Both the position numbers and the translations under genes were made by a program. The notes under the pieces are model-generated. The model saw only the letters and a list, made by a program, of their open reading frames with translations, was not told the DNA's origin and searched no databases. A DNA stretch of 64,000 nt from Dehalococcoidia bacterium (lineage in GTDB: Bacteria > Chloroflexota > Dehalococcoidia > Lucifugimonadales > Lucifugimonadaceae). Positions 15,742-59,176 of this stretch are shown here, in pieces (the first letter of the stretch is position 1; the number at the start of each line of letters is the position of its first letter). The stretch is from positions 1,568,585 through 1,632,584 of the forward strand of contig OZ247429.1 of the NCBI GenBank assembly GCA_965232825.1, in the 5' to 3' direction.

Positions 15742-15826
15742 ACGCAGTACCACAAAGTCTATAAAAACGCAGCTCCCCCAACCTATCCGTCACCCCTTCA
15801 CACACGACGTAGAGGATGTGCGCCCA

Positions 15827-15922
15827 ACCCTCCCCCTCGATGCCCAAGCGGGAACTAAAGGGGGTTAGATTCGGCGTGCCGCACAAATCCCGTCATACCC
15901 GCGCACGCGGGTATCCAGAGGG
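15827..15922. repeat. Composite repeat: family C copy 2 followed by a family B hairpin
   Basis: accctccccctcgatgcccaagcgggaactaaagggggttagattcggcgtgccg is family C. It is followed by cccgtcatacccgcgcacgcgggtatccagaggg, which is family B. Confidence 0.7.
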
Positions 15923-16779: not shown

Positions 16780-17040
16780 CACCACCCCCACCAACCAACC
16801 AAAACCTGCCACCCCCCGCAGGCCATACCAACACACCCTCCTCCCCTTCGCAAAGCGAAAGCGACGCGACGTAGGGGCGGGTTTCAAACCCGCCCTCGCA
16901 CGCAGGGGATGCACGAAAACCACCAATCCACCAACCCCACATCCCCTCCATCCTGTCCATCCATGTAAATTCCCCCAACCCATCATTCCAATCATCAAAA
17001 ATCATGGCAATCATAGTTCAAACCGGCCCTCGCCTAAAAT
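16780..17040 (+). promoter_or_regulatory. Extremely C-rich / G-poor tract (rut-like) upstream of hisS
   Basis: Hand counts: 16781-16860 has 42 C versus 7 G in 80 nt, and 16921-17000 has 37 C versus 2 G in 80 nt. The tract is interrupted only by the family A palindrome at 16871-16899. Confidence 0.3.
16871..16899. repeat. Palindromic intergenic element, family A copy (gtaggggcgggtttcaaacccgccctcgc)
   Basis: Same core as the copies at 13061 and 38203. Confidence 0.6.
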
Positions 17041-29325: not shown

Positions 29326-31641
29326 TTGCCCATGACCCCTCGGATGCGCAAGTCCCTCAAGCTGATCGTCATTTTTGCGTTCATCGCCTGTTTCGCAACC
29401 ATATTCATTAACCAGTCCGCGTCCGCACACGCCAACCTCCTCGAAGCATCGCCCAAACCTTCCGAAGAACTGGAAATCGCGCCGGAACGCGTGATCATTT
29501 GGTTCACTGAACCCATAGAACCCGCGTTCAGTTCGATTTTGGTCTTGGCCACCTCCGGCGCAACCGTAACCGTCGGCGACACTGAGTTCGATCCCACCGA
29601 ACCCACCGCTATGTGGGTTCCCGTCGCTCCTCTCGAAAATGGCACGTACACCGTCGTATGGCGCAACGTCTCTACGGTCGATGGTCACAAAGTCGCTGGT
29701 TCATTCCTCTTCGCCGTCGGCGAACCGATTGGCGCTGGAACACAGGTCGACATCGCGGAACAACCCCTGATCCAATCTCCCTTGGACCCGATCGTCCGCT
29801 GGATCATCTACGTCGGTATAGCCACATTCGCCGGCGGCCTCCTATTTGATCTCGTCATCGCCACTCGCGTAGCTCGCGCCGCAGACGATAGATCAGTCCT
29901 GCTGTTCACGCAAATCGCGACCATCAGTTTCGGATTCATCGCCATCGCATCTGTTGTTGTCGTAGTACTCGCACAACTCGCACAGTTGGCACTCCAAACC
30001 GCGATCGCATTCGATGTACCAATTCACGCCATCGGCCCCGGCCAAATGGTCGACGTAGCTACTGAAAGCGATTGGGGACGGTACTGGTCGTGGCGTATCA
30101 CCGCCGCCGTCCTAGCGGGATTGGCATTGTTCGCAGCGATTCAACTCAGAAGAGATGATCCGTATACACGGAAGGCCGAAGACCTAGAAGAAATGTCTCT
30201 GATTACGGAGACTCCGATGGGCATCGGCGCAATCGCACTCGGCGCGATATACCTCCTGCTCATCGCTCTCACCAGTCACAACGCCGCTACTCCCGACGAC
30301 ATCCGATGGTTCGCCATCGGGACGGATCTTATCCACGTCGTCGCAGCAACCGTCTGGATCGGCGGGATCGCGTATCTCCTCATGGCATCCGTCATCACTG
30401 CTCGTGTACCCGATTTACGCTCATCCTCGGTGCATCTCGAGTTCGCCGCCCGGTTCGCGCCGTGGGCAATCTTCGCTGTCACCATATTGGTCGCATCGGG
30501 CATCGTTTCATCCCTCATGCAGGTCACGATACCCGAGGCTCTCAACACCCCGTACGGCCGCGTACTTGGCGCCAAGATCTTGCTCCTAGTCGTGTTAATC
30601 GCATTGGCGATTCGCAATAACCGCTCCGTCGCAAAATCCTCGACTGCCGACAAGGCAGCCACGACATCGTTTCGTCGTTTCGTCGCGCTCGAACTCGGAG
30701 TTGCCTTCGTAGTCCTCCTCGCAACAGCGGGCCTCGCCAGCCTGGAACCTGCGAGGCAATACGCTGAACGACAAGGCATCGGCGTCGCCCGCGACGTCAG
30801 GCACTCCGAAACCATCTCGGGCGCAACTATCGAAGCAAAACTAGATCCCGGAAACACGGGCGCAAACACCCTGACGGTTGACATCACCGACGAAGACGGC
30901 TCACCGTTCCTCTTCGCAACCGAGGTTCGCGCTCGCATCAAATACCTCGACGACGAATTCGGAGAATACTTCACCCCGCTCATCGAACGATCGCTCGGTC
31001 ACTGGCGGCTCGATGACATCACCATCGGCATTGCTGGCGCATATCAGCTCGACGTCACCGTCGTCAGATCCGACTCCTTCGATTCCCACATCTCCACCCG
31101 CTTCTCAGCCACATCAACTACGTTCGCGTCGGACCTCATTCGGCCTTCCGTCAAATCGGCCATGGTCGCTTTTGGCGTCCTCATCGCCATCGCCGGGCTC
31201 GCTTATCTTGTCGCCACCGTGATAATCGCCAAACCCGTATCGCTCACCATTCACCCCCACTACAGCGTCTCCGCCGTCGCAATCACCATCGGCATCTTCG
31301 CCATCCTCAACGCATTCATCACCGGGATAGGGATTCCAGCCGAAAGCCAAGGCAACCCATTCCCTCTGAACCAAGAATCCATTCAAACTGGCCAAGCCAC
31401 ATACTCCACCGCCTGCGCCACCTGCCACGGCGACACGGGCAAAGGCGACGGCCCCGCCGGCCTGCTTCTAAACCCGCAGCCAGCCGACCTAGCAGTCCAC
31501 GTCCCCCTCCACTCCGACACCGAACTCTACAACTTCATTTCCGACGGCATCGAAGGCACACCGATGGTCGCCCAACGCGACACCCTAACCCCCGACCAAA
31601 TCTGGCACCTTGTCAACTACATCCGCACGATATCTGAGTAA
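29326..31641 (+). CDS. CopC-CopD fusion with extra Ig-like (YtkA/FixH-like) domain and C-terminal cytochrome c
   Basis: The CopC domain starts at the mature N-terminus (SAHANLLEASPKP...GTYTVVWRNVSTVDGHKVAG). A multi-TM CopD-like region follows, then a soluble beta-rich segment (..TIEAKLDPGNTGANTLTVDITDEDG..) and two more TMs. The class I cytochrome c motif CATCHG sits at 31414-31431. The likely start is ATG 29332 or 29344 (track start is TTG). Confidence 0.8.
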   Translation: MPMTPRMRKSLKLIVIFAFIACFATIFINQSASAHANLLEASPKPSEELEIAPERVIIWFTEPIEPAFSSILVLATSGATVTVGDTEFDPTEPTAMWVPVAPLENGTYTVVWRNVSTVDGHKVAGSFLFAVGEPIGAGTQVDIAEQPLIQSPLDPIVRWIIYVGIATFAGGLLFDLVIATRVARAADDRSVLLFTQIATISFGFIAIASVVVVVLAQLAQLALQTAIAFDVPIHAIGPGQMVDVATESDWGRYWSWRITAAVLAGLALFAAIQLRRDDPYTRKAEDLEEMSLITETPMGIGAIALGAIYLLLIALTSHNAATPDDIRWFAIGTDLIHVVAATVWIGGIAYLLMASVITARVPDLRSSSVHLEFAARFAPWAIFAVTILVASGIVSSLMQVTIPEALNTPYGRVLGAKILLLVVLIALAIRNNRSVAKSSTADKAATTSFRRFVALELGVAFVVLLATAGLASLEPARQYAERQGIGVARDVRHSETISGATIEAKLDPGNTGANTLTVDITDEDGSPFLFATEVRARIKYLDDEFGEYFTPLIERSLGHWRLDDITIGIAGAYQLDVTVVRSDSFDSHISTRFSATSTTFASDLIRPSVKSAMVAFGVLIAIAGLAYLVATVIIAKPVSLTIHPHYSVSAVAITIGIFAILNAFITGIGIPAESQGNPFPLNQESIQTGQATYSTACATCHGDTGKGDGPAGLLLNPQPADLAVHVPLHSDTELYNFISDGIEGTPMVAQRDTLTPDQIWHLVNYIRTISE

Positions 31642-44585: not shown

Positions 44586-47500
44586 TTAGTCGTCGTCCAC
44601 GATGGTCATGGTTCCCACGGACGTGGGCGTGAACCACTCTCCGGGGAGGAACGCCTCCACCGCGAAGTACTCGTCCGGTTCGTCCTTGCTGTCATCATAC
44701 AGCCAGACCTCTCCCGTCAGCGCGGTTACGCCCGGCTCGAACACCATCACCCCGTACATGGCCTGGTATTCGGATGAATTCGCCCGGTCGTCCAGCAGGT
44801 GGTAGGCGGTCCCGGCGTACCAGCTCACCTCGAATTCCTCAGTCAAGGCATGGGAGAGGAGTATCCGGAACTCCACAATGTCGCCCTCCGCGCCCGAGGC
44901 ATCCTCCACTGTGACGCTTAGCTCGGCCTTCTGGTCGTCATCGTCCGATACGCTAACCGTGGCTGCGCCTTGAGCCGCCGACACGGTGTAGCCGGCGTCG
45001 GAGGCCGGAGTGTCCAGCGTAGCTGTAACCGATCCGTCGGCTTCGTCCGCACCGTCGTTGGTCGTGCCCACCGTTAACGTGACGCTACCTGTGGTCGGTA
45101 TGGTCACGGTTTGCTTGCCCGTGGTAGCTCCGTAGTCGCCGCTCTGCGACACCGTCACGCTCACGTCGAGGTTGGCCGCGGGGACCGGACTGGCGGTGAT
45201 GGTAAATGTTGCGTCGCCGCCCTCGGTCACGCCGTCGCCGGCCGTGATCGAGACCTCCGGAACGTCGTCGTCCGAGACCGAGACCGTGGCCGCGCTCTGG
45301 GATGAGGACACCGTGTAGCCGGTGTCGGAGGCCGGAGTGTCCAGCGTAGCTGTAACCGATCCGTCGGCTTCTTCCGCACCGTCGTTGGTCGTGCCCACCG
45401 TTAACGTGATGCTACCTGTGGTCGGTATGGTCACGGTTTGCTTGCCCGTGGTAGCTCCGTAGTCGCCGCTCTGCGACACCGTCACGCTCACGTCGAGGTT
45501 GGCCGCGGGGACCGGACTGGCGGTGATGGTAAATGTTGCGTCGCTGCCCTCGGTCACGCCGTCGCCGGCCGTGATCGAGACCTCCGGAACGTCGTCGTCC
45601 GAGACCGAGACCGTGGCCGCGCCCTGAGATGAGGACACCGTGTAGCCGGCGTCGGAGGCCGGTGTGTCCAACGTCGCCGTTACCGACCCGTCAGCTTCGT
45701 CCGTACCGTCGTTAGTAGTGCCTACCGTCAGGGTGAAACTACCCGTCGTCGGTATGGTCACGGTTTGCTTGCCCGTGGTAGCTCCGTAGTTACCGCTCTG
45801 CGACACCGTCACGCTCACGTCCAGGTCGGCCGCCGGGGACGGGCTGGCCGTGATGGTGAACGTTGCATCTCCACCCTCGGTCACGCCGTTGCCAGCGGTG
45901 ATGCTCACCTCCGGCGTGGTCGGCGGTGCATCGTCATCGTCCGCGACGCTGACCGTGGCCGCGCCCTGGGATGAGGACACCGTGTAGCCGGCGTCGGAGG
46001 CCGGTGTGTCCAACGTCGCCGTTACCGACCCGTCAGCTTCGTCCGCACCGTCGTTGGTCGTGCCCACCGTTAACGTGATGCTACCTGTCGTCGGTATGGT
46101 CACGGTTTGCTTGCCCGTGGTAGCTCCGTAGTCGCCGCTCTGCGACACCGTCACGCTCACGTCCAGGTCGGCCGCCGGGGACGGGCTGGCCGTGATGGTG
46201 AAGGTGGCGTCGCCGCCCTCGGTGACGCCGCTGCCGGCGGTAATGCTCACCTCCGGCGTGGTCGGCGGTGCATCGTCATCGTCCGAGACGCTGACCGTGG
46301 CCGCGCCCTGGGATGAGGACACCGTGTAGCCAGCGTCGGAGGCCGGAGTGTCCAGCGTAGCTGTAACCGACCCGTCGGTCTCGTCCGCATCGTCGTTGGT
46401 GGTGCCTACCGTCAGGGTGAAACTGCCCGTCGTCGGGATCGTCACCGTTTGTTTGCCCGTGGTAGCTCCGTAGTCGCCGCTCTGCGACACCGTCACGCTC
46501 ACGTCGAGGTTGGCCGCGGGGGCCGGACTGGCGGTGATGGTGAACGTTGCGTCGCCGCCCTCGGTCACGCCGTTGCCAGCGGTGATGCTCACCTCCGGCG
46601 TGGTGGTTGGCGGCGTGACGATGACCTTGGAATCTTTCGAATCTCCATCCGCAAGGGTGGACACCTTGATGGAGTAGGTGCCGGTCACTTCGCTGCTGCG
46701 GAATGCAACTACGAAGACCTGGTACCCCGTCTCCGGCTCAAGGTCGGTGATCTGATGCTCGGTCTCTGACGTGAAAGCGTATCGCAGCCTCGGGATGCCC
46801 GAGGTCGGGTACCATCCGACCTGATATTGGGTATTGCCTCCTTGCGATGCCCAGATGATCGTGGCGGTGCTGTCCGTCACCTGTTTGACACCGATCGTCT
46901 CGACCTCTGTCGGCGGTGCATCGTCATCGTCCGCAACGCTGACCGTGGCCGCGCCCTGGGACGAGGACACCGTGTAGCCGGCGTCGGCGGCCGGAGTGTC
47001 CAACGTCGCCGTTACCGACCCGTCAGCTTCGTCCGTACCGTCGTTAGTAGTGCCTACCGTCAGGGTGAAACTACCCGTCGTCGGCATGGTCACGGTCTGC
47101 TTGCCCGTGGTAGCTCCGTAGTCGCCGCTCTGCGACACCGTCACGCTCACGTCGAGGTTGGCCGCGGGGGCCGGACTGGCGGTGATGGTGAACGTTGCGT
47201 CGCCGCCCTCGGTCACGCCGTTGCCAGCGGTGATGCTCACCTCTGGCGTGGTCGTTGGCGGCGTATCGTCATCGTCAGCGATGCTGACCGTGGCCGCGCC
47301 CTGGGATGAGGACACCGTGTAGCCGGCGTCGGCGGCCGGTGTGTCCAGCGTCGCCGTTACCGATCCGTCGGCTTCGTCCGTACCGTCGTTGATGGTGCCT
47401 ACCGTCAGGGTGGCGCTACCCGTCGTCGGGATCGTCACGGTCTGTTTGCCCGTGGCCGCGCCGTAGTCGCCGCTCTGCGACACCGTGACGCTCACGTCAA

Positions 47501-50500
47501 GGTCGGCCGCCGGGGACGGGCTGGCCGTGATGGTGAAGGTGGCGTCGCCGCCCTCGGTGACGCCGCTGCCGGCGGTAATGCTCACCTCCGGCGTGGTCGG
47601 CGGTGCATCGTCATCGTCCGCGACGCTGACCGTGGCCGCGCCCTGGGATGAGGACACCGTGTAGCCAGCGTCGGAGGCCGGAGTGTCCAGCGTAGCCGTT
47701 ACCGACCCGTCAGCTTCATCCGTACCGTCGTTGGTGGTGCCAATGGTCAGAGTGGCACTGCCCGAGGTCGGGATCGTCACCGTTTGTTTGCCCGTGGTAG
47801 CTCCGTAGTCGCCGCTCTGCGACACCGTCACGCTCACGTCGAGGTTGGCCGCGGGGGCCGGACTGGCGGTGATGGTGAAGGTGGCGTCGCCGCCCTCGGT
47901 GACGCCGCTGCCAGCCGAGATGCTGACCTCCGGTGTCTGCACTGGCGTGTCGTCGTCATCTGCGACGCTGACTGTGGCTGTGCCCTGAGACGCTGACACC
48001 GTGTAGCCAGCGTCGGCGGCCGGTGTGTCCAACGTCGCCGTTACCGACCCGTCGGTCTCGTCTGCATCGTCGTTGGTGGTGCCAATGGTCAGAGTGGCGC
48101 TGCCCGATGTGGGGATGGTCACCGTTTGTTTGCCCGTGGTCGCGCCGTAGTCGCCGCTGGCCGAGACCGTCACGCCGACGTCCAGGTTGGCCGACGGGGC
48201 TGGGCTGGCAGTGACCGTGAACGTTGCGTCGCCACCTTCTGTTACGCCGCTACCGGCCGTAACGCTCACCACCGGTTCCGACGGGCTGTCATCGTCCGTG
48301 ATCTTGACCCTGGCCACGTTCTGGGTCGGCGACAGCGTGTAGCCGCTGGCCCTGTTTATGAAGACTGTCACCATGCCATCGGCCTCGTCCTCTTCGTCGT
48401 TGGTGGTGCCCATCGTTAGGGTGGCGCTGCCAGTAGTCGGGATGGTCACCGTCCGTATGCCCGTGCCGATACCGTAGTGGCCGCTGGCGGCGACCGTCAC
48501 ACTCACGTCGAGGTTTGTCGTCGGAGCGGGGTCCGCGGTGAGCGTGAAGCTAGCGTCGCCGCCCTCGGTGATGTCGTCTCCGGCGCTGATCGAGACCACC
48601 AGAATGTCGTCGTCGGAGACGGTCACCGTCGCAGCGCTCTGAGTCGCCGACACCGTGTAGCCGGCATCGACGGCCGGAGCGTCGAGCGTCGCCGTGACCG
48701 ACCCGTTGGCTTCGTCGTCGTCATCGTTAATCGTGGACACCGTGAGCGTGACGCTGCCCGTGGTCGGGATGGTCACCGTCCGCTTACCAGTAGTTGCGGC
48801 GTAGTCGCCGTTGGACGAGACCGTCACACTCACGTCGACAGCTGCCGACGGGGCCGGGCTGGCAGTAACGGTGAAGGTCGCGTCTCCGCCCTCGGTGACG
48901 CCGTCCCCGGCGGTGACGCTTACCTTTGGCCTGTCTGGAGTCGGCGGTTCGTCGTCGTCCGCGACGCTGACCGTGGCCGCACTCTGAGACGACGATACCG
49001 TGTAGCCGCTGCCGGTGTCCAAGGTGGCGGTCACCGACCCGTCGTCCTCGGTCACGTCGTCGTTGACGGTGTCCACCTTCAGGGTGCCCTTGCCGCCAAT
49101 ATCAATGGTCACCTGCACCTGGCGAGGTGTGGCGTCAATCGTCACCGTTCTGGTGCTGCCTGCGCTCGGGATCGTCACTGTTCGTTTACCCGTGGTCGCG
49201 CCGTATTCGCCGGTGGTCGAGACCGTCACACTCACGTCGAAGTCGGTCGGCGGGGCCGGGTCTGCTGTGATGATGAAGCCGGCAGCGCCGCCCTCGGTAA
49301 TACTGCCGCGAACTGCCGTGATGCTCACCTCAGGACCCGGTTCATCGTTATCCACGACGATGACCGTGGCCGCGTCCTGGTTCTTTGGCACCTTATAGGC
49401 GGCGTCGGCGGAGGGAGTATCCAGCGTCGCCGTGACCGACCCGTTGGGCTCGTCGGCCTCGTCGTTGGTTGTGCTCACCGTCATGCCGACGCTGCCCGAG
49501 GGCGGGATCGTCACCGTCCGCTGGCCTGTGGTTGCGCCGTAATCGCCGCTGGCCGACACCGTGACGCTCACGTCCAGGTTGGTCGTCGGAGCCGGGTTGG
49601 CGGTAATCGTGAACCGAGCCCAGTTGCCCTCGGTTGCCTGGCCCGTGCCAACGATGCTGACGATCGGTTTGGGCGGGAGCACTGTGACGGCCACCGCGCG
49701 CCCAACCTTCGATCCGTCATTGGCGGCTTGCGCCTCAACGAGCACGCGGTAGACATTGTCCTCGTCGGCATCTTTCGGATCTTCGAAATCGGGCGAGGAA
49801 GCGAAGCTCAGTACGCCGGCGGCGTTGATTGAGAATATCTCGGCGTCCTGTCCAGATAGCGTCCAGGACACAGGGGTAGTCAGGTGATGCGACGTGAAGG
49901 TAGCCACCGAATCCGTCCGGCCAGTGGAGTACGAGACTGCGTCGGGACCACTCACTCGCGGTGTGGAGGGTCCGAAGACCTGAAGGATGTGGTCCTTGCC
50001 GGGCCCGTTCGATGTCGTGATGTAGAGCACGCCGTCCGGCCCCATGACCGGAGAGCGCAGGCGCCCGTAGTGTTGATAGAGTTCCGGCACCAGAGTTTCG
50101 CTGAGAAGGGTTCCGTTGCTGGCGAACTCAAAGACTTTCAAATATTGCACCTTCAGCAGCGCGACGGCCAGTCGTCCGTTCCACGCGCCCCAGCCCGCGC
50201 CCTCGAGGAACACCGCGCCGCTCGGCGCGATCGCTGGGAACCAGGACTGCCACTTGGCCTCGATCGCCTCTGGGAAGGCTTGCAGGTCCGTCATCGGAAC
50301 GTCCTCGTGGTATGGCGGCGTCGGGTCCCAGCCATAGTTGCCGCCGCTGGTGAGGAGGTTGATTTCGTCGTCGCGATCGGGACCGTGCTCCACCGTCCAT
50401 ACTTGGTTCGTTCCTGGACGGAACGCGAGTCCCTGCGGGTTCCGATGTCCATAGGTGTAGATCCGACTGTCGGACGGGGTGGTGAATGGGTTGTCGGGCG

Positions 50501-51740
50501 CGCCTGCTCCCGTCTGGGCATCAACGCGCAGCACTTTCCCGGCGAGGGAAGTGAGGTCCTGAGGCCCGCTAGCGACGTACCCGTCTCCCGTCGTAATCCA
50601 CAGGTAGCCGTCCGAGCCGAAACGGATTCGGCAACCGCCGTGCCGCAGGTGCCAAGTCAGGGGAATACCGGCGACCAACGGCTCGTCTAGGCGGAGAGCC
50701 TCGCTGTAGTCGCTCTTCATGTCCCACTTGATGACTTGCACCTCCGGCCCGGAATCTCCAGTAACGGCCATGCAGGTGTAGAAGCGCCCGAAGACCGGGC
50801 CAACACCGTCCTCGGTGCTACTGACGCTGAAGGAAGGATCGACGGCGATACCCATCATCCCGACTTCGCGACTGGTGACAATGTCGGTAACGTCCGCCTC
50901 GACCTGCTGCATCTGCCCGTCGGGACGTCGGCTGTAGATCTTGCCCGACCGCTCAGTGAACAGCATCGTGCCGTCTGGAGTGAATGCGATGTCCCAGGGA
51001 ATGCTCAGGCCGGAGACGAGTGGGCGCACGGTCAATTCAGGCAGGGCGGTCGCGGCGGTGATCTGTGTGGTAGAAGTCCACTCCGCCGACTTGTCCAAAT
51101 TCCATGCGTTACCTGTGCTGCGTCGGTCGTGGTAACGGACATTGACTCTGAGGTACTTGCCCACGTGCGTGCTGTCTGGCGTGAAAGTCGCAACCTCGGA
51201 AGCCTCTCTTGTGTAATGACCGGGAACCCCCGTTTTGACACGGGTGAAACGAGTCCCGTCGGTCGAGACGCTCCAGTACCAGATGATCCCGGTGTCTGGA
51301 CGCATCCCGCCATCGGGATCAGTGAGCCGCGCCCGGATCATGGTACCGGCGCGAAGCGTCGTTGGGGCTACGGAGAGGACTCCCGCCTCTTCGATGTCTA
51401 ACACGGAGATCGTAACCGGAATGCTGGCTGTGCCATTGTCATGATTGATATCGACATTGACCGCATAACTATTGCGTACTTCATAGTCCAGCGATACAGC
51501 GGTGCTCAGTTGACCGCTGGCGCTGTCGATGCTGAAGCTGCCAGCGTCCGTGCCTGACAGGGCATGCGTAAGATTGCCGACGAGGTCGGAATTGGTCACC
51601 GGATCGCCAACGGCCGTACCTACTGGCTGATTCTCCAGGACTTGAAGGGTCGCGCTCGACGCATGAACCGTACCAGATATGGGCAACAGCAATAGACCCA
51701 AGAGCATCAGGCCAACAAGAGCCAGCCTGCCGTCAAACAT
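44586..51740 (-). CDS. Giant exported multidomain protein: cadherin-like + PQQ-type (glucose/sorbosone) sugar dehydrogenase beta-propeller + 14 Calx-beta-like repeats with an embedded FN3 domain
   Basis: The track ORF 44586..52016 has a TTG start. I place the start at ATG 51740 (MFDGRLALVGLMLLGLLLLPISGTVHA|SS, a classic signal peptide). The cadherin-like block is LQVLENQPVGTAVG...LDYEVRNSYAVNV. The propeller blocks are GLSIPWDIAFTPDGTMLFTER, RHGGCRIRFGSDGYLWITTGD, LAGKVLRV, YTYGHRNPQGLAF and EHGPDRDDEINLLTSGGNYGWP-like. There are 13 units of PEVSITAGSGVTEGGDATFTITASP...TNDGTDEADGSVTATLD...ATVSVADDD plus a divergent terminal Calx-beta. The FN3 block is VTDSTATIIWAS...YQVFVVAF. No C-terminal anchor motif. 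Confidence 0.9.
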   Translation of the reverse strand: MFDGRLALVGLMLLGLLLLPISGTVHASSATLQVLENQPVGTAVGDPVTNSDLVGNLTHALSGTDAGSFSIDSASGQLSTAVSLDYEVRNSYAVNVDINHDNGTASIPVTISVLDIEEAGVLSVAPTTLRAGTMIRARLTDPDGGMRPDTGIIWYWSVSTDGTRFTRVKTGVPGHYTREASEVATFTPDSTHVGKYLRVNVRYHDRRSTGNAWNLDKSAEWTSTTQITAATALPELTVRPLVSGLSIPWDIAFTPDGTMLFTERSGKIYSRRPDGQMQQVEADVTDIVTSREVGMMGIAVDPSFSVSSTEDGVGPVFGRFYTCMAVTGDSGPEVQVIKWDMKSDYSEALRLDEPLVAGIPLTWHLRHGGCRIRFGSDGYLWITTGDGYVASGPQDLTSLAGKVLRVDAQTGAGAPDNPFTTPSDSRIYTYGHRNPQGLAFRPGTNQVWTVEHGPDRDDEINLLTSGGNYGWDPTPPYHEDVPMTDLQAFPEAIEAKWQSWFPAIAPSGAVFLEGAGWGAWNGRLAVALLKVQYLKVFEFASNGTLLSETLVPELYQHYGRLRSPVMGPDGVLYITTSNGPGKDHILQVFGPSTPRVSGPDAVSYSTGRTDSVATFTSHHLTTPVSWTLSGQDAEIFSINAAGVLSFASSPDFEDPKDADEDNVYRVLVEAQAANDGSKVGRAVAVTVLPPKPIVSIVGTGQATEGNWARFTITANPAPTTNLDVSVTVSASGDYGATTGQRTVTIPPSGSVGMTVSTTNDEADEPNGSVTATLDTPSADAAYKVPKNQDAATVIVVDNDEPGPEVSITAVRGSITEGGAAGFIITADPAPPTDFDVSVTVSTTGEYGATTGKRTVTIPSAGSTRTVTIDATPRQVQVTIDIGGKGTLKVDTVNDDVTEDDGSVTATLDTGSGYTVSSSQSAATVSVADDDEPPTPDRPKVSVTAGDGVTEGGDATFTVTASPAPSAAVDVSVTVSSNGDYAATTGKRTVTIPTTGSVTLTVSTINDDDDEANGSVTATLDAPAVDAGYTVSATQSAATVTVSDDDILVVSISAGDDITEGGDASFTLTADPAPTTNLDVSVTVAASGHYGIGTGIRTVTIPTTGSATLTMGTTNDEEDEADGMVTVFINRASGYTLSPTQNVARVKITDDDSPSEPVVSVTAGSGVTEGGDATFTVTASPAPSANLDVGVTVSASGDYGATTGKQTVTIPTSGSATLTIGTTNDDADETDGSVTATLDTPAADAGYTVSASQGTATVSVADDDDTPVQTPEVSISAGSGVTEGGDATFTITASPAPAANLDVSVTVSQSGDYGATTGKQTVTIPTSGSATLTIGTTNDGTDEADGSVTATLDTPASDAGYTVSSSQGAATVSVADDDDAPPTTPEVSITAGSGVTEGGDATFTITASPSPAADLDVSVTVSQSGDYGAATGKQTVTIPTTGSATLTVGTINDGTDEADGSVTATLDTPAADAGYTVSSSQGAATVSIADDDDTPPTTTPEVSITAGNGVTEGGDATFTITASPAPAANLDVSVTVSQSGDYGATTGKQTVTMPTTGSFTLTVGTTNDGTDEADGSVTATLDTPAADAGYTVSSSQGAATVSVADDDDAPPTEVETIGVKQVTDSTATIIWASQGGNTQYQVGWYPTSGIPRLRYAFTSETEHQITDLEPETGYQVFVVAFRSSEVTGTYSIKVSTLADGDSKDSKVIVTPPTTTPEVSITAGNGVTEGGDATFTITASPAPAANLDVSVTVSQSGDYGATTGKQTVTIPTTGSFTLTVGTTNDDADETDGSVTATLDTPASDAGYTVSSSQGAATVSVSDDDDAPPTTPEVSITAGSGVTEGGDATFTITASPSPAADLDVSVTVSQSGDYGATTGKQTVTIPTTGSITLTVGTTNDGADEADGSVTATLDTPASDAGYTVSSSQGAATVSVADDDDAPPTTPEVSITAGNGVTEGGDATFTITASPSPAADLDVSVTVSQSGNYGATTGKQTVTIPTTGSFTLTVGTTNDGTDEADGSVTATLDTPASDAGYTVSSSQGAATVSVSDDDVPEVSITAGDGVTEGSDATFTITASPVPAANLDVSVTVSQSGDYGATTGKQTVTIPTTGSITLTVGTTNDGAEEADGSVTATLDTPASDTGYTVSSSQSAATVSVSDDDVPEVSITAGDGVTEGGDATFTITASPVPAANLDVSVTVSQSGDYGATTGKQTVTIPTTGSVTLTVGTTNDGADEADGSVTATLDTPASDAGYTVSAAQGAATVSVSDDDDQKAELSVTVEDASGAEGDIVEFRILLSHALTEEFEVSWYAGTAYHLLDDRANSSEYQAMYGVMVFEPGVTALTGEVWLYDDSKDEPDEYFAVEAFLPGEWFTPTSVGTMTIVDDD
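44940..48282. repeat. High-identity tandem coding repeats (periods 327 and 342 bp) inside the giant gene
   Basis: Antisense track ORFs recur at 45111, 45438, 45765, 46107, 46449 ... 47784, 48126 with nearly identical sequences. Adjacent units 45001-45060 and 45328-45387 differ at 1 of 60 nt by eye. The array is interrupted by the FN3-coding segment (~46600-46915). Confidence 0.9.
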
Positions 51741-51901
51741 CCGTAGCCATGTCAGTTGTCGATTCGAGAAATCGAAACTACGACTTGCGCGATCGTTCAG
51801 GGTCATCAGCGTCCGATGCAGAGCATATGGGGCGTCATTCATTGAGAAAATTGGCATCGATATGTCACCCAATATCTTGGGATGTTCGCTGCGCAACCTT
51901 T

Positions 51902-51932
51902 CAATATATAGCAAAAATATGCACAAGATCAA
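51902..51932 (-). promoter_or_regulatory. Candidate promoter of the giant gene (TTGATC-N16-18-TATATA/TATATT) in AT-rich leader
   Basis: The minus strand reads ttgatc ttgtgcatatttttgc tatatattg. It lies ~160 nt upstream of ATG 51740. Confidence 0.3.
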
Positions 51933-52100
51933 TGAAACTCGATTACTGGGACTGTCCCCAGACTTGGCTGTACGTATCTTTTCTTCGTAGAGTCGGCTCG
52001 ATTTCCATTGGGGCAACGCGATGTACTCATCGTGTGGTCAGCATGGTGAGTACATCGATCAGTTCTGTCCTGCAAGAACCATGACCGCCTTTCCCTAGCC

Positions 52101-52248
52101 CTAGTCGGCGTCCACTATCGTCATAGCTCCCACGGCGTCGGCTAGATACGACCCTCAGGGCAAGTACGCCTCCACCGCGAAATACTCGTCCGGCTCGTCA
52201 TTGCCGTCATCCTCCAGTCACACCTCTTCCGTCAGCGGCGGTCACCAC
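52101..52248 (-). pseudogene. Decayed 3'-terminal fragment of a paralogous Calx-beta protein gene
   Basis: It aligns base-for-base with the 3' end of the giant gene (44586-44733). Its translation is TEEV*LEDDGNDEPDEYFAVEAYLP*GSYLADAVGAMTIVDAD*, against TGEVWLYDDSKDEPDEYFAVEAFLPGEWFTPTSVGTMTIVDDD* in the giant gene. There are two in-frame stops. Confidence 0.7.
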
Positions 52249-52401: not shown

Positions 52402-52477
<76 letters not shown>

Positions 52478-52842: not shown

Positions 52843-54456
52843 TCAACCTCGGAAATTGGTCTTCGTGCGGCGAAGCGCTTCGTTCCAGCCGGCCATGAGA
52901 CGTATGCGTTCGCTTTGGGACATGTCGGGCTCGTATCGATGGGCGCAGCGCCAGAGGTCGGCGAGTTCGCGCTCCGATCGCCATATACCGGCCGCGCGTC
53001 CGGCGAGGAACGCGGCGCCAAGCGCGGTGGTTTCATCGACGGCGGAGACTTCGATTGGACGATCCATAAGGTCAGCCTGGAACTGCATCAGGAATGGGTT
53101 CCGAGTCTGGCCGCCATCGACGCGTATGACGCGTTCCCGGCGATTACCACGCCGCGGCAATCGCAGCCGAGAATCCATGATGTCGACCACCTCCTTGACC
53201 TGGTAAGCGGTCGATTCGAGGGCGGCACGGATGATGTGATCTCTGGTGGTTCCACGGCTGATGCCGGTGATGGATGCTCGGGCATGCGGGTCCCAATGTG
53301 GAGAACCGAGCCCAGAAAATGCCGGCACTAGATAGACTCCAGCGTTGTCTCCGAGCATGACGGCGACATCAGAAGAATCAGCGGCATTGCTGAGGATGCC
53401 TAGGCCATCACGGAGCCATTGCGTGGTCGACCCGGTGTTGAATATCGAAGCCTCGAGAGCGTACGTCTTCGCGCCGCCGGTTTGCCATCCGAGTGTGAAA
53501 AGAAGGCCAGCGTTCGCCTCGTCGAGATCAGCCGTCGACATTTCACCGGAACCCGACGCACCGGTAAAGAGGTCAACGTTTGTTCCTGCGTTGGCGAGCA
53601 GAAACGCACCAGTCCCATAAGTGCACTTCATGTCGCCTCTGATGAAACACACTTGGCCGTAAAGCGCGGCGTGTTGGTCGCCAGCGACGCCAGTGACCGG
53701 GACTTCGCGACCGAAGATTGAAGCGTGGATGGTGGTGAAGGTGCCCGCCGACGGCATGGGAGTCGGCAACGCAGCTTCAGGTATGCCGAAGATGCGCAAC
53801 AAATCCGGGTCCCACGTCAGGTCGTGGATGTTTAGGAGCATCGTGCGCGATGCGTTGGTGACGTCGGTCAGGTGCGGGATGTCATCGCGCGGCGCGTCTG
53901 AAATTCGCCCCGATCGCTCACCGCGTGATAGCTGGTCGATTAGCCAAGCGTCGACGGTCCCGAATCGGACGTCGCCGTTTTCTGCGCGCCCCTGAAGGTT
54001 CGGGATCGGCAGATGGTCGAGCATCCAGCGCATCTTCGTGGCGGAGAAGTACGGATCGACGATAAGTCCGGTGCGCGACCAGATATCGTCGCCCAGCCCG
54101 GCATCGCTGATCTCGTTACAGATTGCAGCGGTGCGATGGTCCTGCCAGACGATGGCATTCGACAACGGCCTCCCCGTGGAACTCTCCCAGACAACTGTGG
54201 TTTCGCGTTGGTTGGCGATGCCCACGGCCGCGACATCGTCAACGGAAGCATTGGCCGTCTGCAACGCTTGCCGTGCGACACCGATGGCCGATTCTGCGAT
54301 CTCGACCGGGTCATGCTCCACCCACCCGGATCGCGGGAAGATCTGCGTCAGTTCTTTCTGCGCGGATCCGAGCGGTTGTGCCGTTTCGTCGAAAACAATG
54401 GCACGCGTCGACGTTGTGCCCTGATCGATGGTGAGGATTACGGATTTTGAGGGCAT
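52843..54456 (-). CDS. glpK: Glycerol kinase (FGGY family)
   Basis: 537 aa with N-terminus ILTIDQGTTSTRAIVFDE...IFPRSGWVEHDPVEI and GDQHAALYGQ. It is ~35 aa longer than typical GlpK because of an internal insertion. Confidence 0.9.
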   Translation of the reverse strand: MPSKSVILTIDQGTTSTRAIVFDETAQPLGSAQKELTQIFPRSGWVEHDPVEIAESAIGVARQALQTANASVDDVAAVGIANQRETTVVWESSTGRPLSNAIVWQDHRTAAICNEISDAGLGDDIWSRTGLIVDPYFSATKMRWMLDHLPIPNLQGRAENGDVRFGTVDAWLIDQLSRGERSGRISDAPRDDIPHLTDVTNASRTMLLNIHDLTWDPDLLRIFGIPEAALPTPMPSAGTFTTIHASIFGREVPVTGVAGDQHAALYGQVCFIRGDMKCTYGTGAFLLANAGTNVDLFTGASGSGEMSTADLDEANAGLLFTLGWQTGGAKTYALEASIFNTGSTTQWLRDGLGILSNAADSSDVAVMLGDNAGVYLVPAFSGLGSPHWDPHARASITGISRGTTRDHIIRAALESTAYQVKEVVDIMDSRLRLPRRGNRRERVIRVDGGQTRNPFLMQFQADLMDRPIEVSAVDETTALGAAFLAGRAAGIWRSERELADLWRCAHRYEPDMSQSERIRLMAGWNEALRRTKTNFRG

Positions 54457-54470
54457 GGCGACGCGTTGTT

Positions 54471-54510
54471 CTAACCCCCCTTATTTCCCCCTTGATCATC
54501 AAGGGGGAGG
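54471..54510. repeat. Family C repeat copy 3 (reverse), with perfect 10-bp-arm hairpin cccccttgat c atcaaggggg
   Basis: The reverse complement cctcccccttgatgatcaagggggaaataaggggggttag aligns to copies 1 and 2. It sits between the SDR stop (54519) and the glpK start (54456). Confidence 0.6.
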
Positions 54511-54518
54511 TTCAGCTT

Positions 54519-55262
54519 CTATCCGAAGAGCGGGTTGTTACCGCCGAATGCATCGATAGCGGTCCCGGTCACCGCGGAAGATTTTTCCGAAGCTAGAAAG
54601 ACGGCCAGATTGGCGATTTCCGACGGAAGCATCAGATTAGGATGATCCTCTCGTCCACGATTGTTGAATGCCTCCCGGTATCCTTCGGTGTCGGTTCCAC
54701 CAGGGCAGATTGCGTTGACATTAATGCCGTGATCGTGCAGTTCGGCGGCAAGGCTCTGGGTGAGGCTGATCAATGCTGATTTTGTAACGCGGTACGCGCT
54801 GCGTCCGCGTGCGCCAGACCGCCCACCGATGCTGGAGATGTTGATAATGTTGCCGCTGCCTTGCTCGATCATTGTCGGCACCGCCGCCTTAGTCAGCATC
54901 GCGGCGGCATTGAGGTTGACTTCAATCACGTCGTACCAGGTGTCATCTCCGAGGTCAACGAGGTCGATTCGAGGATGGATGATGGCGGCATTGTTGACGA
55001 GGATGTCGACCTTTCCAAACTTGGCCAAGACGGTCGGGACGACTCCGGCGACCTGCGCCCGATCGGTGAAGTCAGATTGGCAGACCAGCGCCTCAGCACC
55101 GATTTCACGTACGTGATCTGCAGTGGCCTCCAGCTCGGACACAGTACGCCCGGTTACCGCGACGTTGGCGCCTTCAAGCGCGAAGGCATAGGCGCATGCC
55201 CTTCCGATGCCCTTCGATCCGCCAGTGACAAGCGCTACTTTATCGTCGAATTCGCCGCTCAT
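54519..55262 (-). CDS. Short-chain dehydrogenase/reductase
   Basis: It has TGGSKGIGRA, NNAA, SSIGG and YRVTK. Its start overlaps the kdgK stop. Confidence 0.85.
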   Translation of the reverse strand: MSGEFDDKVALVTGGSKGIGRACAYAFALEGANVAVTGRTVSELEATADHVREIGAEALVCQSDFTDRAQVAGVVPTVLAKFGKVDILVNNAAIIHPRIDLVDLGDDTWYDVIEVNLNAAAMLTKAAVPTMIEQGSGNIINISSIGGRSGARGRSAYRVTKSALISLTQSLAAELHDHGINVNAICPGGTDTEGYREAFNNRGREDHPNLMLPSEIANLAVFLASEKSSAVTGTAIDAFGGNNPLFG

Positions 55263-56284
55263 CGCTGCACCCTTCCGCTAACGTTGCCACCCGCGACGCT
55301 CATCACTTCACTCACCGAGACCAAGTTGAAATCGCCATGGAAGGTGTGAGCTAGCGCGGATGACGCGGCCGCGAATTCCAATGTTTGAGCCGATGTCCAA
55401 CCATCTTGCAAGTTACCGTAGATGAGGCCAGCCGAGAATGCATCCCCACCGCCAACGCGGTCGACGATGCGGACCGAGTATTTCGGAGCCATCAGGATTT
55501 CGTCGCCATCGTAGTAGATAGCCGACCAGTCGTTATCGTCTGCTGACTGCGATTCACGTAGCGTGATGCCAACTTGTTCGAAACCGAACTCCTCGATGAG
55601 GCGGTTCACCACGGGTTCGTAAGCAGTTGCGTCGATCTCGCCACTGGTCACATCCACCCCTTCAGGAGCGACGCCCAAGGACATCTCAGCATCTTCCTCA
55701 TTGCCGATCGCGACATCGACGTATTTCATCATCGGCCGCATCACCGCTTGGGCCTCAGCGGGAGACCAGAGATTTTTCCGGTAGTTCATGTCCGCTGAAA
55801 CGGTGAGTCCCATCGCCTTCGCGATGGACGCCGCTTCGTCGCAGGCCCGGGCCGCCGATTCGGAGATTGCTGGCGTTATACCGGTGAAATGAAACCAGTC
55901 TCTTCCATCGAAGATGCGTTCCCATTCGATCTCGCCCGGTTGTAGTTCGGCTATCGAGGACGCGGCGCGGTCGTAGATTACTTTGGATGCCCTCATGGCT
56001 GCGCCGTTTTCGAGATAGTAGGTTCCGAGGCGTTGGCCTTGCCGAACGATCTCTGATGTGTCGACGCCCCATTGTCGGACGTAGTTGATGCATGCCTGAC
56101 CGATGTCGTTATCTGGCAGTGCGGTGACGTAGATCGATTCGAAACCGAAGTTGGCCAACGAAACCGCGACGTTGCATTCTCCGCCGCCGTACGTGACCTC
56201 AAACTCGCGAGCTTGGGTGAAACGCTCTCGACGGTTCGTCGCGAGACGCAACATAATCTCACCGAACGTTACGACTGATGGCAT
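55259..56284 (-). CDS. kdgK: 2-dehydro-3-deoxygluconokinase (PfkB family)
   Basis: 341 aa with TFGEIMLRL...GGGECNVAVSLANFG...GAAMRASKVIYDRAASS and DRVGGGDAFSAGLIYG. Confidence 0.82.
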   Translation of the reverse strand: MPSVVTFGEIMLRLATNRRERFTQAREFEVTYGGGECNVAVSLANFGFESIYVTALPDNDIGQACINYVRQWGVDTSEIVRQGQRLGTYYLENGAAMRASKVIYDRAASSIAELQPGEIEWERIFDGRDWFHFTGITPAISESAARACDEAASIAKAMGLTVSADMNYRKNLWSPAEAQAVMRPMMKYVDVAIGNEEDAEMSLGVAPEGVDVTSGEIDATAYEPVVNRLIEEFGFEQVGITLRESQSADDNDWSAIYYDGDEILMAPKYSVRIVDRVGGGDAFSAGLIYGNLQDGWTSAQTLEFAAASSALAHTFHGDFNLVSVSEVMSVAGGNVSGRVQR

Positions 56285-56330
56285 TGATTGAATCTCCTCG
56301 GCTCTTACAGCAGGTTGCGGTTGTCAGTTT

Positions 56331-57134
56331 CTAGTAGAAGGTTGCGTTGTCGTCGTCATCTCCCCCGCCGGAACCGGATACGACGTTCGCGAGCTCGGTG
56401 TCAACCGCGGATTTCAGCAGACGGACATCGGAAGCAATAGGGAACCAAGTCATGCCCTGTTGAATACGGCGAGCGGCCTCGTTGCCGTCGATGCAGTGGA
56501 TGCCCGTCGCAACGCCGTGACGTTTGCCCGCAGCGACGACAGTTTCGACCGCTTTGACGTGATCGGGGTGCTTGTTGTCGAGACCAGTGGGGACGCCGAG
56601 GGTGCTTGCCAGATCGTTGGGTCCGACGAAACACACATCGAGATCGGGAACTTCCATAATTTTGTCGATGCGATCGACCGCCCGCCAATCCTCAATCATG
56701 CACACCACCATGATGAGGTCGTTGGCATTTTCGTAGTAGTTGCTGCCATAGACGAGTTGGCCGCGAGTGGAACCGATACCGCGTAAGCCGCGCGGGCGGT
56801 ACTTCGCAGCCACCACCGCACGTTCAGCCTCTTCTTCGTCCTTGACGTCAGGCACCACGATGCCAGTAAATCCGATGTCTAGGACCCGTTTCACCCAGAT
56901 CGGATCGTTGCTCGGAATCCGGGCGAACATTGGTTTGCCTGAGCCATTACCGGCGCGGAGGCAATGCACCGCGGTCGAAACGTCGATCGCGTTGTGTTCG
57001 AAATCGAGCGTAACCCAGTCGAACTCAGTAGTGTGCAACAGCGTCTCGATGACTGAAGGGTCGCCGCTGGCCGACCACGTGCCGAGCGATGGTAAGTTCT
57101 GGGCGAGTTTCGCCTTAACCGGGTTGACGTCCAT
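56331..57134 (-). CDS. HpcH/HpaI-family class II (2-keto-3-deoxy-acid) aldolase
   Basis: 267 aa with DWVTLDFEHNAID, ARIPSNDPIWVKRVLDIGFTGIVVP, MIEDWRAV and FVGPNDLA. Confidence 0.8.
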   Translation of the reverse strand: MDVNPVKAKLAQNLPSLGTWSASGDPSVIETLLHTTEFDWVTLDFEHNAIDVSTAVHCLRAGNGSGKPMFARIPSNDPIWVKRVLDIGFTGIVVPDVKDEEEAERAVVAAKYRPRGLRGIGSTRGQLVYGSNYYENANDLIMVVCMIEDWRAVDRIDKIMEVPDLDVCFVGPNDLASTLGVPTGLDNKHPDHVKAVETVVAAGKRHGVATGIHCIDGNEAARRIQQGMTWFPIASDVRLLKSAVDTELANVVSGSGGGDDDDNATFY

Positions 57135-57961: not shown

Positions 57962-58060
57962 TTGTACACATTGTTGAAACAGTAGCAAGCGGTTGTACAT
58001 GTTGATCGCGATATGTGCAAAACTGGGCGGTTTTTATACATACCAAGTTCATACATCGAT
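57962..58060. repeat. Cluster of TGTACA/ATGTGCA-type heptamers downstream of fic
   Basis: The motifs are ttgtacacattg, ttgtacatgttg, atatgtgcaaaa, tatacatac and catacatcg, all within ~100 AT-rich bp. Confidence 0.5.
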
Positions 58061-59176
58061 AAAGTGAACGATGTTCGCCATATCGTCGGATTGACCGGTC
58101 AGGATATCGATGAGGTCGTGGTTCCTAAAAAGCTGGTGCCGGCCGGATTTGATACGCTCCAACATGCCGGCTCTGGTGAGCGCCTCTAAACGCGAACGCG
58201 CCGTGGCTCGGGTCACGCCTTCGACTTCCTGCACCATCCTCGTGGTTGTGTAAGGGCGCATAAAGAGCAGATCGATCAATTGCTCGGATGCTGCGGTGGG
58301 AGCGTCTACCCGTGCTCTTTCGGCGAACTCCTTGCGCAACTCCCTGATTCTGATCAGATCATTGCGCCCTTCCTCAGCCACTTCTCTTATGCCGGCCAAT
58401 ATGAATCGCACCCACTCTTCCCACGCGCCTGATTCAGTGACGGCACGCAGTCCGGCATAGTATTCGCGGCGGCGGCGCAGGAAATAACGGCTGAGATACA
58501 GGACGGGTTGATCCAATAATCCTTTGTGCATCAGATAGAGGATGTTGATGATGCGGCCTGTCCTTCCGTTGCCGTCCGGGAACGGGTGTATCGCTTCGAA
58601 CTGGTAATGCATGATCGCCATCTTGATGATGGGATCTAAACCGGTCGAGCTCTCGTTAGCGAAATTGATGAGATTCTCCAAGAGGCGGAGCAAGGTGGGC
58701 TTCCCAAACGGCGGCGTGTAGACCACAAACCGCGCGCGCAGATTACCGATGAGGACCGCGGAATCTCTCACATCCGTCTGGGTGCCGAGAATCTGGCTGC
58801 ATATGTCGATGAACAGCTGAGTTTCCAAATCCGGATGAGTCGATAACCGATCGATGGCCGTTGAAAGCGCGGGACGGTAGCGTGCAGCTTCCTTGGTGGC
58901 ATCAGAAGCGCGTTCGTTGCCAACCGCCATGAATCTGAACAGTTCATCGCTCGTGGTGTTGACATTCTCGATCTCCGAGCTGGCCACCGCCTCAGTAATG
59001 GCAAACGCGTCGATCAGCAATTGTGGATTGGGCACACTGAGCGCGGTCCCGTTGAGATTCGCCAACGCGCGGCTGGCCAAGTTGAGCTCCCGCATCACAC
59101 CGATAGTCTCGATTTCGATCGCGGGTGGTAGCTGCGGAAGTTCGTTGTACGGTCGCTTCGGATCATATGTTGACAT
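58049..59176 (-). CDS. Fic-family protein (class II, Fic_N + Fido + C-terminal winged-helix)
   Basis: 375 aa with the Fic motif HPFPDGNGRTGR and the N-terminal inhibitory-helix motif SSEIEN ([ST]xxxE[GN]). The C-terminus RMVQEVEGVTRATARSRLEALTRAGMLERIKSGRHQLFRN looks like a wHTH. Confidence 0.9.
   Translation of the reverse strand: MSTYDPKRPYNELPQLPPAIEIETIGVMRELNLASRALANLNGTALSVPNPQLLIDAFAITEAVASSEIENVNTTSDELFRFMAVGNERASDATKEAARYRPALSTAIDRLSTHPDLETQLFIDICSQILGTQTDVRDSAVLIGNLRARFVVYTPPFGKPTLLRLLENLINFANESSTGLDPIIKMAIMHYQFEAIHPFPDGNGRTGRIINILYLMHKGLLDQPVLYLSRYFLRRRREYYAGLRAVTESGAWEEWVRFILAGIREVAEEGRNDLIRIRELRKEFAERARVDAPTAASEQLIDLLFMRPYTTTRMVQEVEGVTRATARSRLEALTRAGMLERIKSGRHQLFRNHDLIDILTGQSDDMANIVHFIDV

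Follow-up and report, generated by a model that had tools for sequence, protein, structure and literature searches.

Why would a bacterium devote a single gene of about 7.2 kb to a protein with a sugar dehydrogenase near one end and a long row of near-alike domains behind it? The question is raised by a window of 64,000 nucleotides (positions 1,568,585 to 1,632,584 of contig OZ247429.1, assembly GCA_965232825.1, deposited as Dehalococcoidia bacterium), which is the whole stretch of DNA that was analysed and to which the coordinates below refer. On its minus strand, an uninterrupted open reading frame (ORF) of 2476 codons (44586..52016) contains the gene; read from the ATG at 51740, the coding region 44586-51740 takes up 11% of the window and encodes 2,384 amino acids (aa). 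We think it rather probable that this giant protein is a Sec-exported, extracellular fibrillar enzyme of Periscope-like design, in which a head of the pyrroloquinoline quinone (PQQ)-type aldose dehydrogenase class sits on a predicted calcium-binding stalk of variable length. An earlier sequence-only reading, made without database searches, had already described one large gene occupying this share of the window, with a product ending in DDD, and the intact ORF bears this out. The features of the gene, from the leader to the stop codon, are as follows:

51741..52016, minus strand: AT-rich leader with a sigma-70-like promoter match (GC content and consensus match)
51660..51740, minus strand: start codon ATG 51740 and Sec-type signal peptide, aa 1-27, with a putative cleavage site between MFDGRLALVGLMLLGLLLLPISGTVHA and SS (sole hydrophobic 19-mer window in the protein; cleavage site by rule)
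51396..51659, minus strand: N-terminal cadherin domain, aa 28-115 (Pfam Cadherin PF00028)
51021..51395, minus strand: Ig-like all-beta domain, aa 116-240 (structure model; conserved in more than 50 homologous heads)
49995..51008, minus strand: six-bladed propeller of the GSDH type (PQQ-dependent aldose sugar dehydrogenase), aa 245-582 (Pfam, PDB, Foldseek and conservation)
49668..49973, minus strand: post-propeller cadherin-like beta-sandwich, aa 590-691 (all-beta structure model; cadherin at the same position in homologs)
46920..49667, minus strand: repeats R1-R8, divergent Calx-beta-like, ~109 aa each, aa 692-1607 (tandem-repeat detection, motif parsing and repeat search)
46599..46919, minus strand: FN3 domain and linkers, aa 1608-1714, interrupting the array (Pfam fn3)
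44934..46598, minus strand: repeats R9-R13, aa 1715-2269 (same basis as R1-R8)
44586..44933, minus strand: terminal canonical Calx-beta domain, aa 2270-2384, ending ...TMTIVDDD, and the stop codon (Pfam near-threshold match, homologs)

Architecture and probable export

Read in protein order, the signal peptide is followed by a cadherin domain, an Ig-like domain, the GSDH propeller, a cadherin-like module, eight repeats, one FN3 domain, five further repeats and a terminal Calx-beta domain that ends in DDD. The mature protein has a mass of ~239 kDa and a pI of about 4.05, and its stalk is strongly acidic (239 D/E against 39 K/R). The signal peptide is the sole hydrophobic segment of the protein and lies at its N-terminus, in agreement with the classic signal peptide of the sequence-only reading, and a VHAS/AHAS motif at this place is kept in the orthologs. 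Only two cysteines occur among the 2,384 residues, C323 (50772-50774) and C370 (50631-50633); both lie within the propeller, and about 47 of 50 homologous heads have them too, which suggests an extracellular structural disulfide. Because of this single N-terminal hydrophobic segment and of the conservation of both cysteines in the propeller, it seems reasonable to place the protein outside the cell, and export with cleavage of the signal peptide would be expected. Motif, Pfam and hydrophobicity checks of the giant protein found no further transmembrane segment and no LPXTG, SLH, CWB2 or PEP-CTERM/PEP motif, so that the lack of a recognisable anchor noticed earlier holds, and a motif scan found no RTX GGxGxD motif.

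The head

The propeller matches GSDH PF07995 with 246.4 bits (cut-off 25, E=6e-73) over profile positions 1-329 of 332. A sequence search of the PDB matched it to 2ISM and 3A9G with E about 1e-42 to 1e-44, and alignments with the PQQ-dependent aldose dehydrogenases 2ISM, 3A9G, 7CDY and 2G8S span its full length. An AlphaFold2 (AF2) model of aa 28-700, built with 49 homologs, reached a predicted local distance difference test (pLDDT) score of 90.7 and a predicted template modelling score (pTM) of 0.87. Foldseek superposed this model on 3A9G with a TM-score of 0.89 and a root-mean-square deviation of 2.6 Å, and also matched it to 2ISM, 2G8S, 3DAS and 7CDY; TM-scores to PQQ aldose dehydrogenases lay at about 0.82-0.89, and the predicted fold is a six-bladed propeller. 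Of 50 homologous heads, 42-50 keep the residues H367, D386, H432-R433-N434, Q436, H452, D458-E459, N461, N468-Y469 and R560/R562. In the alignment with the PDB enzymes, H367 aligns to the catalytic His144 of soluble glucose dehydrogenase (sGDH), and H432-R433-N434 and R560/R562 align to PQQ-contacting residues, the correspondence of single residues with sGDH numbering being in part putative. The roles of the catalytic His and of the PQQ-binding Arg in sGDH have been described (PMC6881789). Because the catalytic and PQQ-contact residues are conserved in homologs, the propeller is, judging from this conservation, a genuine member of the GSDH family and not a degenerate scaffold, and the complete propeller announced by the sequence-only reading stands.

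Within the family, the sequence of the propeller is Asd-like and not GdhB-like. The GdhB-type NCBIfam model TIGR03606 gave 139.4 bits against a cut-off of 434.55, the NCBIfam scan as a whole giving sub-threshold matches only, and the propeller is 27-34% identical to PQQ aldose sugar dehydrogenases (Asd) of the Asd/YliI class (3A9G, 2ISM, 2G8S, 3DAS), with all of the catalytic His, HRN(P)QG, EHGP...DDEIN, NYGW and C-terminal RxR motifs present. The known Asd enzymes are stand-alone, periplasmic or cytoplasmic proteins of ~350 aa, whereas here the propeller is embedded between cadherin/Ig-like domains on a stalk of ~1,700 aa. The conserved Cys pair may be a further difference. By its kinship the head would be expected to bind PQQ and to oxidise aldoses, which may be its substrates. 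In the bacterial enzymes, main-chain carbonyls serve as ligands of the active-site calcium (PMC6881789), for which reason sequence cannot decide whether the propeller binds calcium and PQQ.

The propeller is flanked by all-beta modules. The N-terminal cadherin domain was found by PF00028 at aa 32-113 with 31.9 bits (cut-off 28.8), and cadherin ectodomains were among the Foldseek matches of the head model, with low TM-scores in multi-domain alignments. The Ig-like region was rightly recognised by the sequence-only reading: it is all-beta in the AF2 model, mostly at high pLDDT with one low-confidence loop, it is conserved in more than 50 homologous heads, and its only Pfam match is a weak one to CshA_repeat. 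Two cadherin modules had been proposed, and the first was recovered; the second (aa 590-691), scanned alone, had no Pfam match, and homologous heads carry a canonical cadherin at its position. By profile match, one bona fide cadherin domain only is shown in the giant protein.

The stalk

The 13 tandem units of the stalk, as assembled, start at aa 692, 804, 938, 1047, 1156, 1270, 1384 and 1499 and, after the FN3 domain, at aa 1715, 1829, 1943, 2052 and 2161. Three methods, namely motif parsing, Tandem Repeats Finder (TRF) and a de novo repeat search, agreed on this count, and R2 carries a 20-aa insertion. The single FN3 domain said to split the array was recovered by PF00041 at aa 1614-1690 (27.4 bits, cut-off 25) between eight and five units, and a gap of matching size breaks the repeat array in the three orthologs described below (L001, L002 and L003).

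To which family do the repeats belong? Their best Pfam match, LapA PF20579, is sub-threshold (21 bits against 27), and a PDB sequence search with the 13-repeat profile retrieved no solved structure (best E 0.11). The terminal domain scored 26.6 bits against Pfam Calx-beta within the whole protein and 24.5 alone, for a cut-off of 27, and homologous terminal domains scored 46.2, 39.6 and 28.7 bits. It had been called a divergent Calx-beta; it does fall just under the threshold, and we term it canonical and reserve "divergent" for the repeats. An AF2 model of the last repeat (R13) together with the terminal domain reached a pLDDT of 93.3, and its top Foldseek matches were the tandem calcium-binding domains (CBD12) of NCX1 and CALX, with both domains aligned (E=1.8e-11); single CBD1 domains gave TM-scores up to 0.78. 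The profile comparison by hhalign linked the repeat to the terminal Calx-beta with a probability of 94.2% and E=1.1e-7 over 100 of 109 columns, and paired their TEG, DY, DDxxDExD and DDD motifs. The name "Calx-beta-like" is justified because of this predicted fold and of the profile-profile homology to the terminal domain, and the model supports repeats that are divergent Calx-beta-like by fold and distant homology and lie outside Pfam's current Calx-beta family. Thirteen Calx-beta-like units had been proposed from the letters; their count, fold and profile homology stood, and their recognition by Pfam Calx-beta did not.

An acidic cluster, E13/D42/N68-D69/D72-E73/D75/D106-108, is kept in all 13 units; E13, N68-D69, E73, D106 and D108 are invariant, and D42, D72, D75 and D107 are nearly so. 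Clusters of calcium-ligand type were found in the repeats as the A-B loop Glu, the E-F loop DDxxxExxE and the C-terminal DDD. These acidic positions presumably correspond to the calcium ligands of NCX1 CBD1. As in CBD1-CBD2 of NCX1 and CALX, the predicted fold is a beta-sandwich, and the acidic clusters of the repeats occupy the positions of the terminal domain's motifs.

Relatives and repeat dynamics

Is this architecture an isolated case? The cadherin/Ig-like/GSDH/cadherin-like head occurs commonly, with more than 50 proteins in which the match covers at least 520 of the 673 residues, in most cases at 42-61% identity. SLH or CWB2 wall-binding domains stand at the C-terminus of many of these proteins, and one of them has fn3 and a canonical Calx-beta. 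Because the SLH/CWB2 anchors sit C-terminal, the domain order of these relatives indicates that their head is distal and their C-terminus cell-proximal. The repeats form a large family of their own, with 4,458 representatives at E<=1e-3 in proteins of up to 7,836 aa and up to 47 units. Among its 150 best representatives, 77 have a terminal Calx-beta-like domain at the extreme C-terminus, typically ending ...TMTI[VI]DDD, and a single one (P0206) has a GSDH head. The cassette of repeats and terminal Calx-beta (P0121-P0199, nearly all ending ...TI[VI]D[DN]D) was also seen in metagenome-assembled genomes labelled Chloroflexota, Acidimicrobiaceae, Gammaproteobacteria and Gemmatimonadetes, and is shared across phyla insofar as it was found under these several labels.

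The same full architecture is present in three other genomes, with about 10 to 14 repeats, so that the search for the same domain order in related genomes was answered positively. The L001 ortholog, labelled Dehalococcoidia, is 82% identical over the head and has 2,054 aa with about 10 repeats; the L003 ortholog, labelled Acidimicrobiales, is 77% identical and has 2,489 aa with 14 repeats; in the L002 ortholog, also labelled Acidimicrobiales and 78% identical, a frameshift separates two pieces of 1,951 and 588 aa. This frameshift lies inside a repeat (15693-15829) and represents either a real pseudogene or a sequencing error. The L001 and L003 orthologs are single intact ORFs on large contigs or chromosomes, and an assembly chimera is unlikely because the architecture recurs in such contig- or chromosome-scale assemblies. 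A further protein that combines fn3 with these repeats and a terminal Calx-beta (39.6 bits) is encoded about 8 kb upstream of the L003 ortholog, and a DDE transposase sits between the two (L003 43-2076 and 8011-9714).

R1, R3 and R4 are divergent, and their best cross-genome match is the repeat at the same position in L003, which is not the case of R2. R5-R13 are 94-95% identical in protein sequence within the gene, as against 83-89% to the repeats of orthologs; R6-R13 are 83-94% identical in DNA, and the longest exact stretch common to two repeats measures 143 bp. Synonymous codon differences between repeats outnumber non-synonymous ones by about 3:1. No two repeats of the window are identical, and in L003 some pairs are identical in protein sequence. 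Because identity within the gene exceeds that to ortholog repeats, the stalk is, on these comparisons, under concerted evolution with copy-number change, repeat numbers being about 10 in L001, 13 in the window and 14 in L003.

Comparison with known surface proteins

The sequence-only reading had considered an enzyme at the tip of a repeat stalk as not being a textbook architecture, which overstates its novelty. Surface proteins with an enzyme on a stalk have been described as "fibrillar enzymes" (Monzon and Bateman, PMC9210967) and stalk proteins of variable length as "Periscope Proteins", for instance SasG, Rib, Sgo_0707 and CdrA (Whelan et al., PMC8201768), and the head itself is common in metagenomes. 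The giant protein shares with both an N-terminal functional head, a long array of near-alike stalk domains and short Pro-rich linkers, and with Periscope Proteins a high DNA identity between repeats, a repeat number that varies among homologs and homogenisation within the gene. Unlike them, it has no C-terminal wall-attachment motif (no LPXTG, transmembrane segment, SLH or CWB2); its stalk is made of divergent Calx-beta domains and not of G5/E, Rib or SHIRT; its head is a quinoprotein dehydrogenase; and its host is an uncultured sponge-associated bacterium, probably of the Chloroflexota, in place of Firmicute pathogens.

Three further comparisons are worth making. The Aggregation Factor of sponges (MAFp4) contains long tandem Calx-beta arrays of variable number (PMC11670116), as does the giant protein if its repeats are counted as such, the likeness being one of description. 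Against Calx-beta proteins as a whole, it must be said that the repeats fail the Pfam model, score best below threshold on LapA and have no PDB sequence match. The giant RTX adhesins exported by type I secretion systems (T1SS), such as LapA, MpIBP and SiiE, are likewise of great size and acidity, their ligand-binding domains being projected on Ig-like repeat stalks that depend on calcium, and it is to LapA that the repeats show their weak sub-threshold match, but their polarity and export are opposite to those of a protein with an N-terminal Sec signal and an N-terminal head; assignment to this class was rejected, the Sec signal being present, the RTX motif absent and no T1SS genes being recognised nearby. 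Lastly, eukaryote-like proteins with the same domain classes are enriched in sponge Actinobacteriota and Chloroflexota and have been laterally transferred (PMC11706023, PMC8163846), although these studies count domains only. Our literature search yielded no account of the GSDH-headed architecture or this repeat family, and nothing relevant on sponge-symbiont sorbosone dehydrogenase, on PQQ-dependent sugar dehydrogenase with cadherin, or on Poriferisodalis. Hence we regard the protein, with its quinoprotein head, divergent Calx-beta stalk and lack of a known anchor, as an uncharacterised combination within a known class of surface proteins and in a known ecological setting.

Enzyme, adhesin or released protein

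How might such a protein work? If it is a fibrillar enzyme, it is tempting to propose that calcium at seawater level would fill the acidic clusters at the domain junctions and stiffen the stalk into a rod of tens of nanometres. The C-terminal end would be cell-proximal, in place of the SLH/CWB2 anchors of the shorter relatives, and the terminal Calx-beta would serve as the cell-proximal docking module. The head would then be held out into the sponge matrix, where it could bind aldose sugars or the reducing ends of glycans and, if PQQ is available, oxidise them, and recombination among near-identical repeats would let stalk length differ between lineages.

A number of points weigh against the fibrillar enzyme. 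None of the 13 repeats, scanned alone, matched Pfam Calx-beta PF03160 even at E<=10, and the acidic clusters of the stalk are, from their sequence, putative calcium sites only. Cell attachment and orientation are proposed by analogy alone, because no cell-wall anchor is recognisable. No genes for PQQ biosynthesis or uptake were seen in the 64-kb window, the only part of the genome covered, nor is there an evident physiological acceptor for the electrons of an extracellular quinoprotein. A functional link between the giant gene and an adjacent sugar-kinase/aldolase cluster was rejected, the cluster not being syntenic in the orthologs. The cleavage site of the signal peptide was placed by rule and not by a predictor, and the start codon is ambiguous: other in-frame ATGs at 51806, 51842 and 51857 would give a product of up to 2,423 aa, and the upstream stretch 51741-51860, once translated (…RASRS…TWLRM), is similar to the extension that the L001 ORF has at its N-terminus. 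Homology of L001 DNA to the window starts at 51825; the L002 and L003 orthologs begin right at the signal peptide, and L001, the closest ortholog, has peptide-like similarity further upstream.

The main rival is a pure adhesin, in which the propeller would be lectin-like or protein-binding, as in Hedgehog-interacting protein (HHIP), and the cadherin, FN3 and Calx-beta parts would give calcium-dependent attachment to the sponge matrix (e.g., the Aggregation Factor) or to cells. HHIP propellers are indeed structurally related to that of the head, the arms of the Aggregation Factor are Calx-beta arrays (PMC11670116), and a PQQ pathway and an electron acceptor are not evident in the window. Moreover, sponge symbionts show an enrichment of proteins with cadherin, fn3 and Calx-beta domains, which have been read as attachment factors (PMC8163846, PMC11706023), and for this reason the attachment to a host or to particles that the sequence-only reading had envisaged is, by analogy, plausible. 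As an account of the whole protein we nevertheless hold the pure adhesin to be unlikely, since a mere scaffold would have no need of the catalytic His and PQQ-contacting residues kept in 42-50 of the 50 homologous heads, and since the likeness to HHIP (E about 5e-5, TM-score about 0.6) is far weaker than that to active dehydrogenases.

One may also ask whether the protein stays on the cell at all. A protein released into the shared matrix, where it would act as a diffusible enzyme or a scaffold crosslinked by calcium, would agree with the lack of transmembrane, LPXTG, SLH, CWB2, RTX and PEP-CTERM signals, with the extreme acidity of the stalk and with adjacent genes among which no sortase or dedicated secretion gene was recognised. 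We consider such a release distinctly unlikely: the homologous heads are wall-anchored, there is no evident reason for an enzyme that diffuses freely to have a long rigid stalk, and the C-terminal Calx-beta of 77 of the 150 best family representatives, which mostly lack this head, suggests a common docking role. A bolder proposal, which we regard as quite improbable, is that of a surface quinoprotein, placed tens of nanometres from the cell on a stalk stiffened by calcium, whose Calx-beta-like units imitate the Calx-beta arms of the sponge Aggregation Factor or dock to them, so that the symbiont would insert itself in the self-recognition matrix of its host while the head oxidises sugars of host glycans and the cassette moves between symbiont phyla as a symbiosis factor. 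That the gene is an artefact or dead, be it a chimera, a repeat collapse or a decaying pseudogene, might be suspected from near-identical repeats with exact stretches up to 143 bp, from the split L002 ortholog and from a relic of another copy just upstream, but is very improbable given an uninterrupted 7.2-kb frame, no identical repeat pair, mostly synonymous differences, and the same domain order in the single intact ORFs of L001 and L003.

Should the fibrillar enzyme be correct and its head active, a PQQ quinoprotein would work on a long stalk outside a cell presumed, from its probable phylum, to lack an outer membrane, which raises the questions of the source of the cofactor and the fate of the electrons, and an AA12-like oxidative activity would be added to the processing of host matrix glycans by sponge symbionts. 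The repeats define a large unannotated family of Calx-beta-like stalk domains, with more than 4,400 representatives missed by Pfam models, and because these models miss them, studies that count domains of sponge "eukaryote-like proteins" probably undercount the family.

Genomic context and locus history

The host genome is sponge-associated, as indicated by its CTP synthase (PyrG), which shares 96% identity with a metagenomic protein and 84% with entries filed under the sponge Geodia barretti. The next best named relatives are from Dehalococcoidia/Chloroflexota at 55-57% identity, and no Actinomycetota-labelled CTP synthase was found among the best 120 matches. Because a gene 77-78% identical in protein sequence is common to genomes labelled Chloroflexota and Acidimicrobiales, lateral transfer of this 7-kb gene between Chloroflexota and Acidimicrobiia is probable, and the pair constitutes a clean candidate for cross-phylum transfer of a surface-protein gene. 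Flanks that differ, with no conserved gene neighbours in L001-L003, the transposase beside the L003 copy and the GC contrast (0.645 in the gene, 0.571 in the rest of the window) would all fit such a transfer. Cadherin, fn3 and Calx-beta proteins are known to be enriched in sponge symbionts, among which attachment genes have been laterally transferred (PMC11706023, PMC8163846).

The leader 51741-52016 is AT-rich, as had been noticed, with a GC content of 0.464 against a window mean of 0.579; among 276-bp windows it ranks within the lowest 0.35%. It contains a sigma-70-like match (TTGATC-18-TATATT, 51932..51903), which is a consensus match only. Two features lie upstream of it:

52102..52245, minus strand: pseudogene relic covering the final ~44 codons of a further terminal Calx-beta domain, with two stops in its frame (DNA identity and tblastn)
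52402..52477, minus strand: tRNA-Ala(GGC) (Rfam 64.3 bits and ARAGORN)

The 144-bp relic lies between the tRNA and the leader. Its DNA shares 81% identity with the 3' end of the giant gene itself, 44587-44729 (tblastn E=2.6e-11), and the homology ends exactly at the stop codon; the relic's translation reads ...DDGNDEPDEYFAVEAYLP, a stop, GSYLADAVGAMTIVDAD and a second stop. Because it carries the 3' end of another copy with stops, a second family member was, by this homology, formerly present at the locus and has since been lost. With the relic and the giant gene next to it, the tRNA-Ala(GGC) may point to an integration hotspot; an att-like direct repeat of the tRNA-Ala 3' end was not found in the window.

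Among the neighbours, an MMPL transporter is recognisable downstream, and the genes adjoining the giant gene include no recognised secretion (T1SS), sortase or PQQ gene. Upstream, a same-strand cluster (52843-57134, minus strand) encodes an FGGY sugar kinase, an SDR protein, a PfkB kinase and an HpcH/HpaI aldolase, which could catabolise aldonic or keto-deoxy sugar acids, that is, products of the aldose-dehydrogenase type; its place beside the giant gene is probably coincidental. Neither the FGGY kinase nor the giant protein had an exact match in the protein collection searched, either because the source genome is no part of it or because gene starts were placed differently there. Elsewhere in the window, ARAGORN predicted a tRNA-Gly(CCC) (16868-16941, minus strand) that Rfam did not report at its gathering threshold, and we also noted a CopC-CopD fusion with a C-terminal cytochrome c domain (29326-31641, plus strand) and a Fic/DOC family protein (58049-59176, minus strand).

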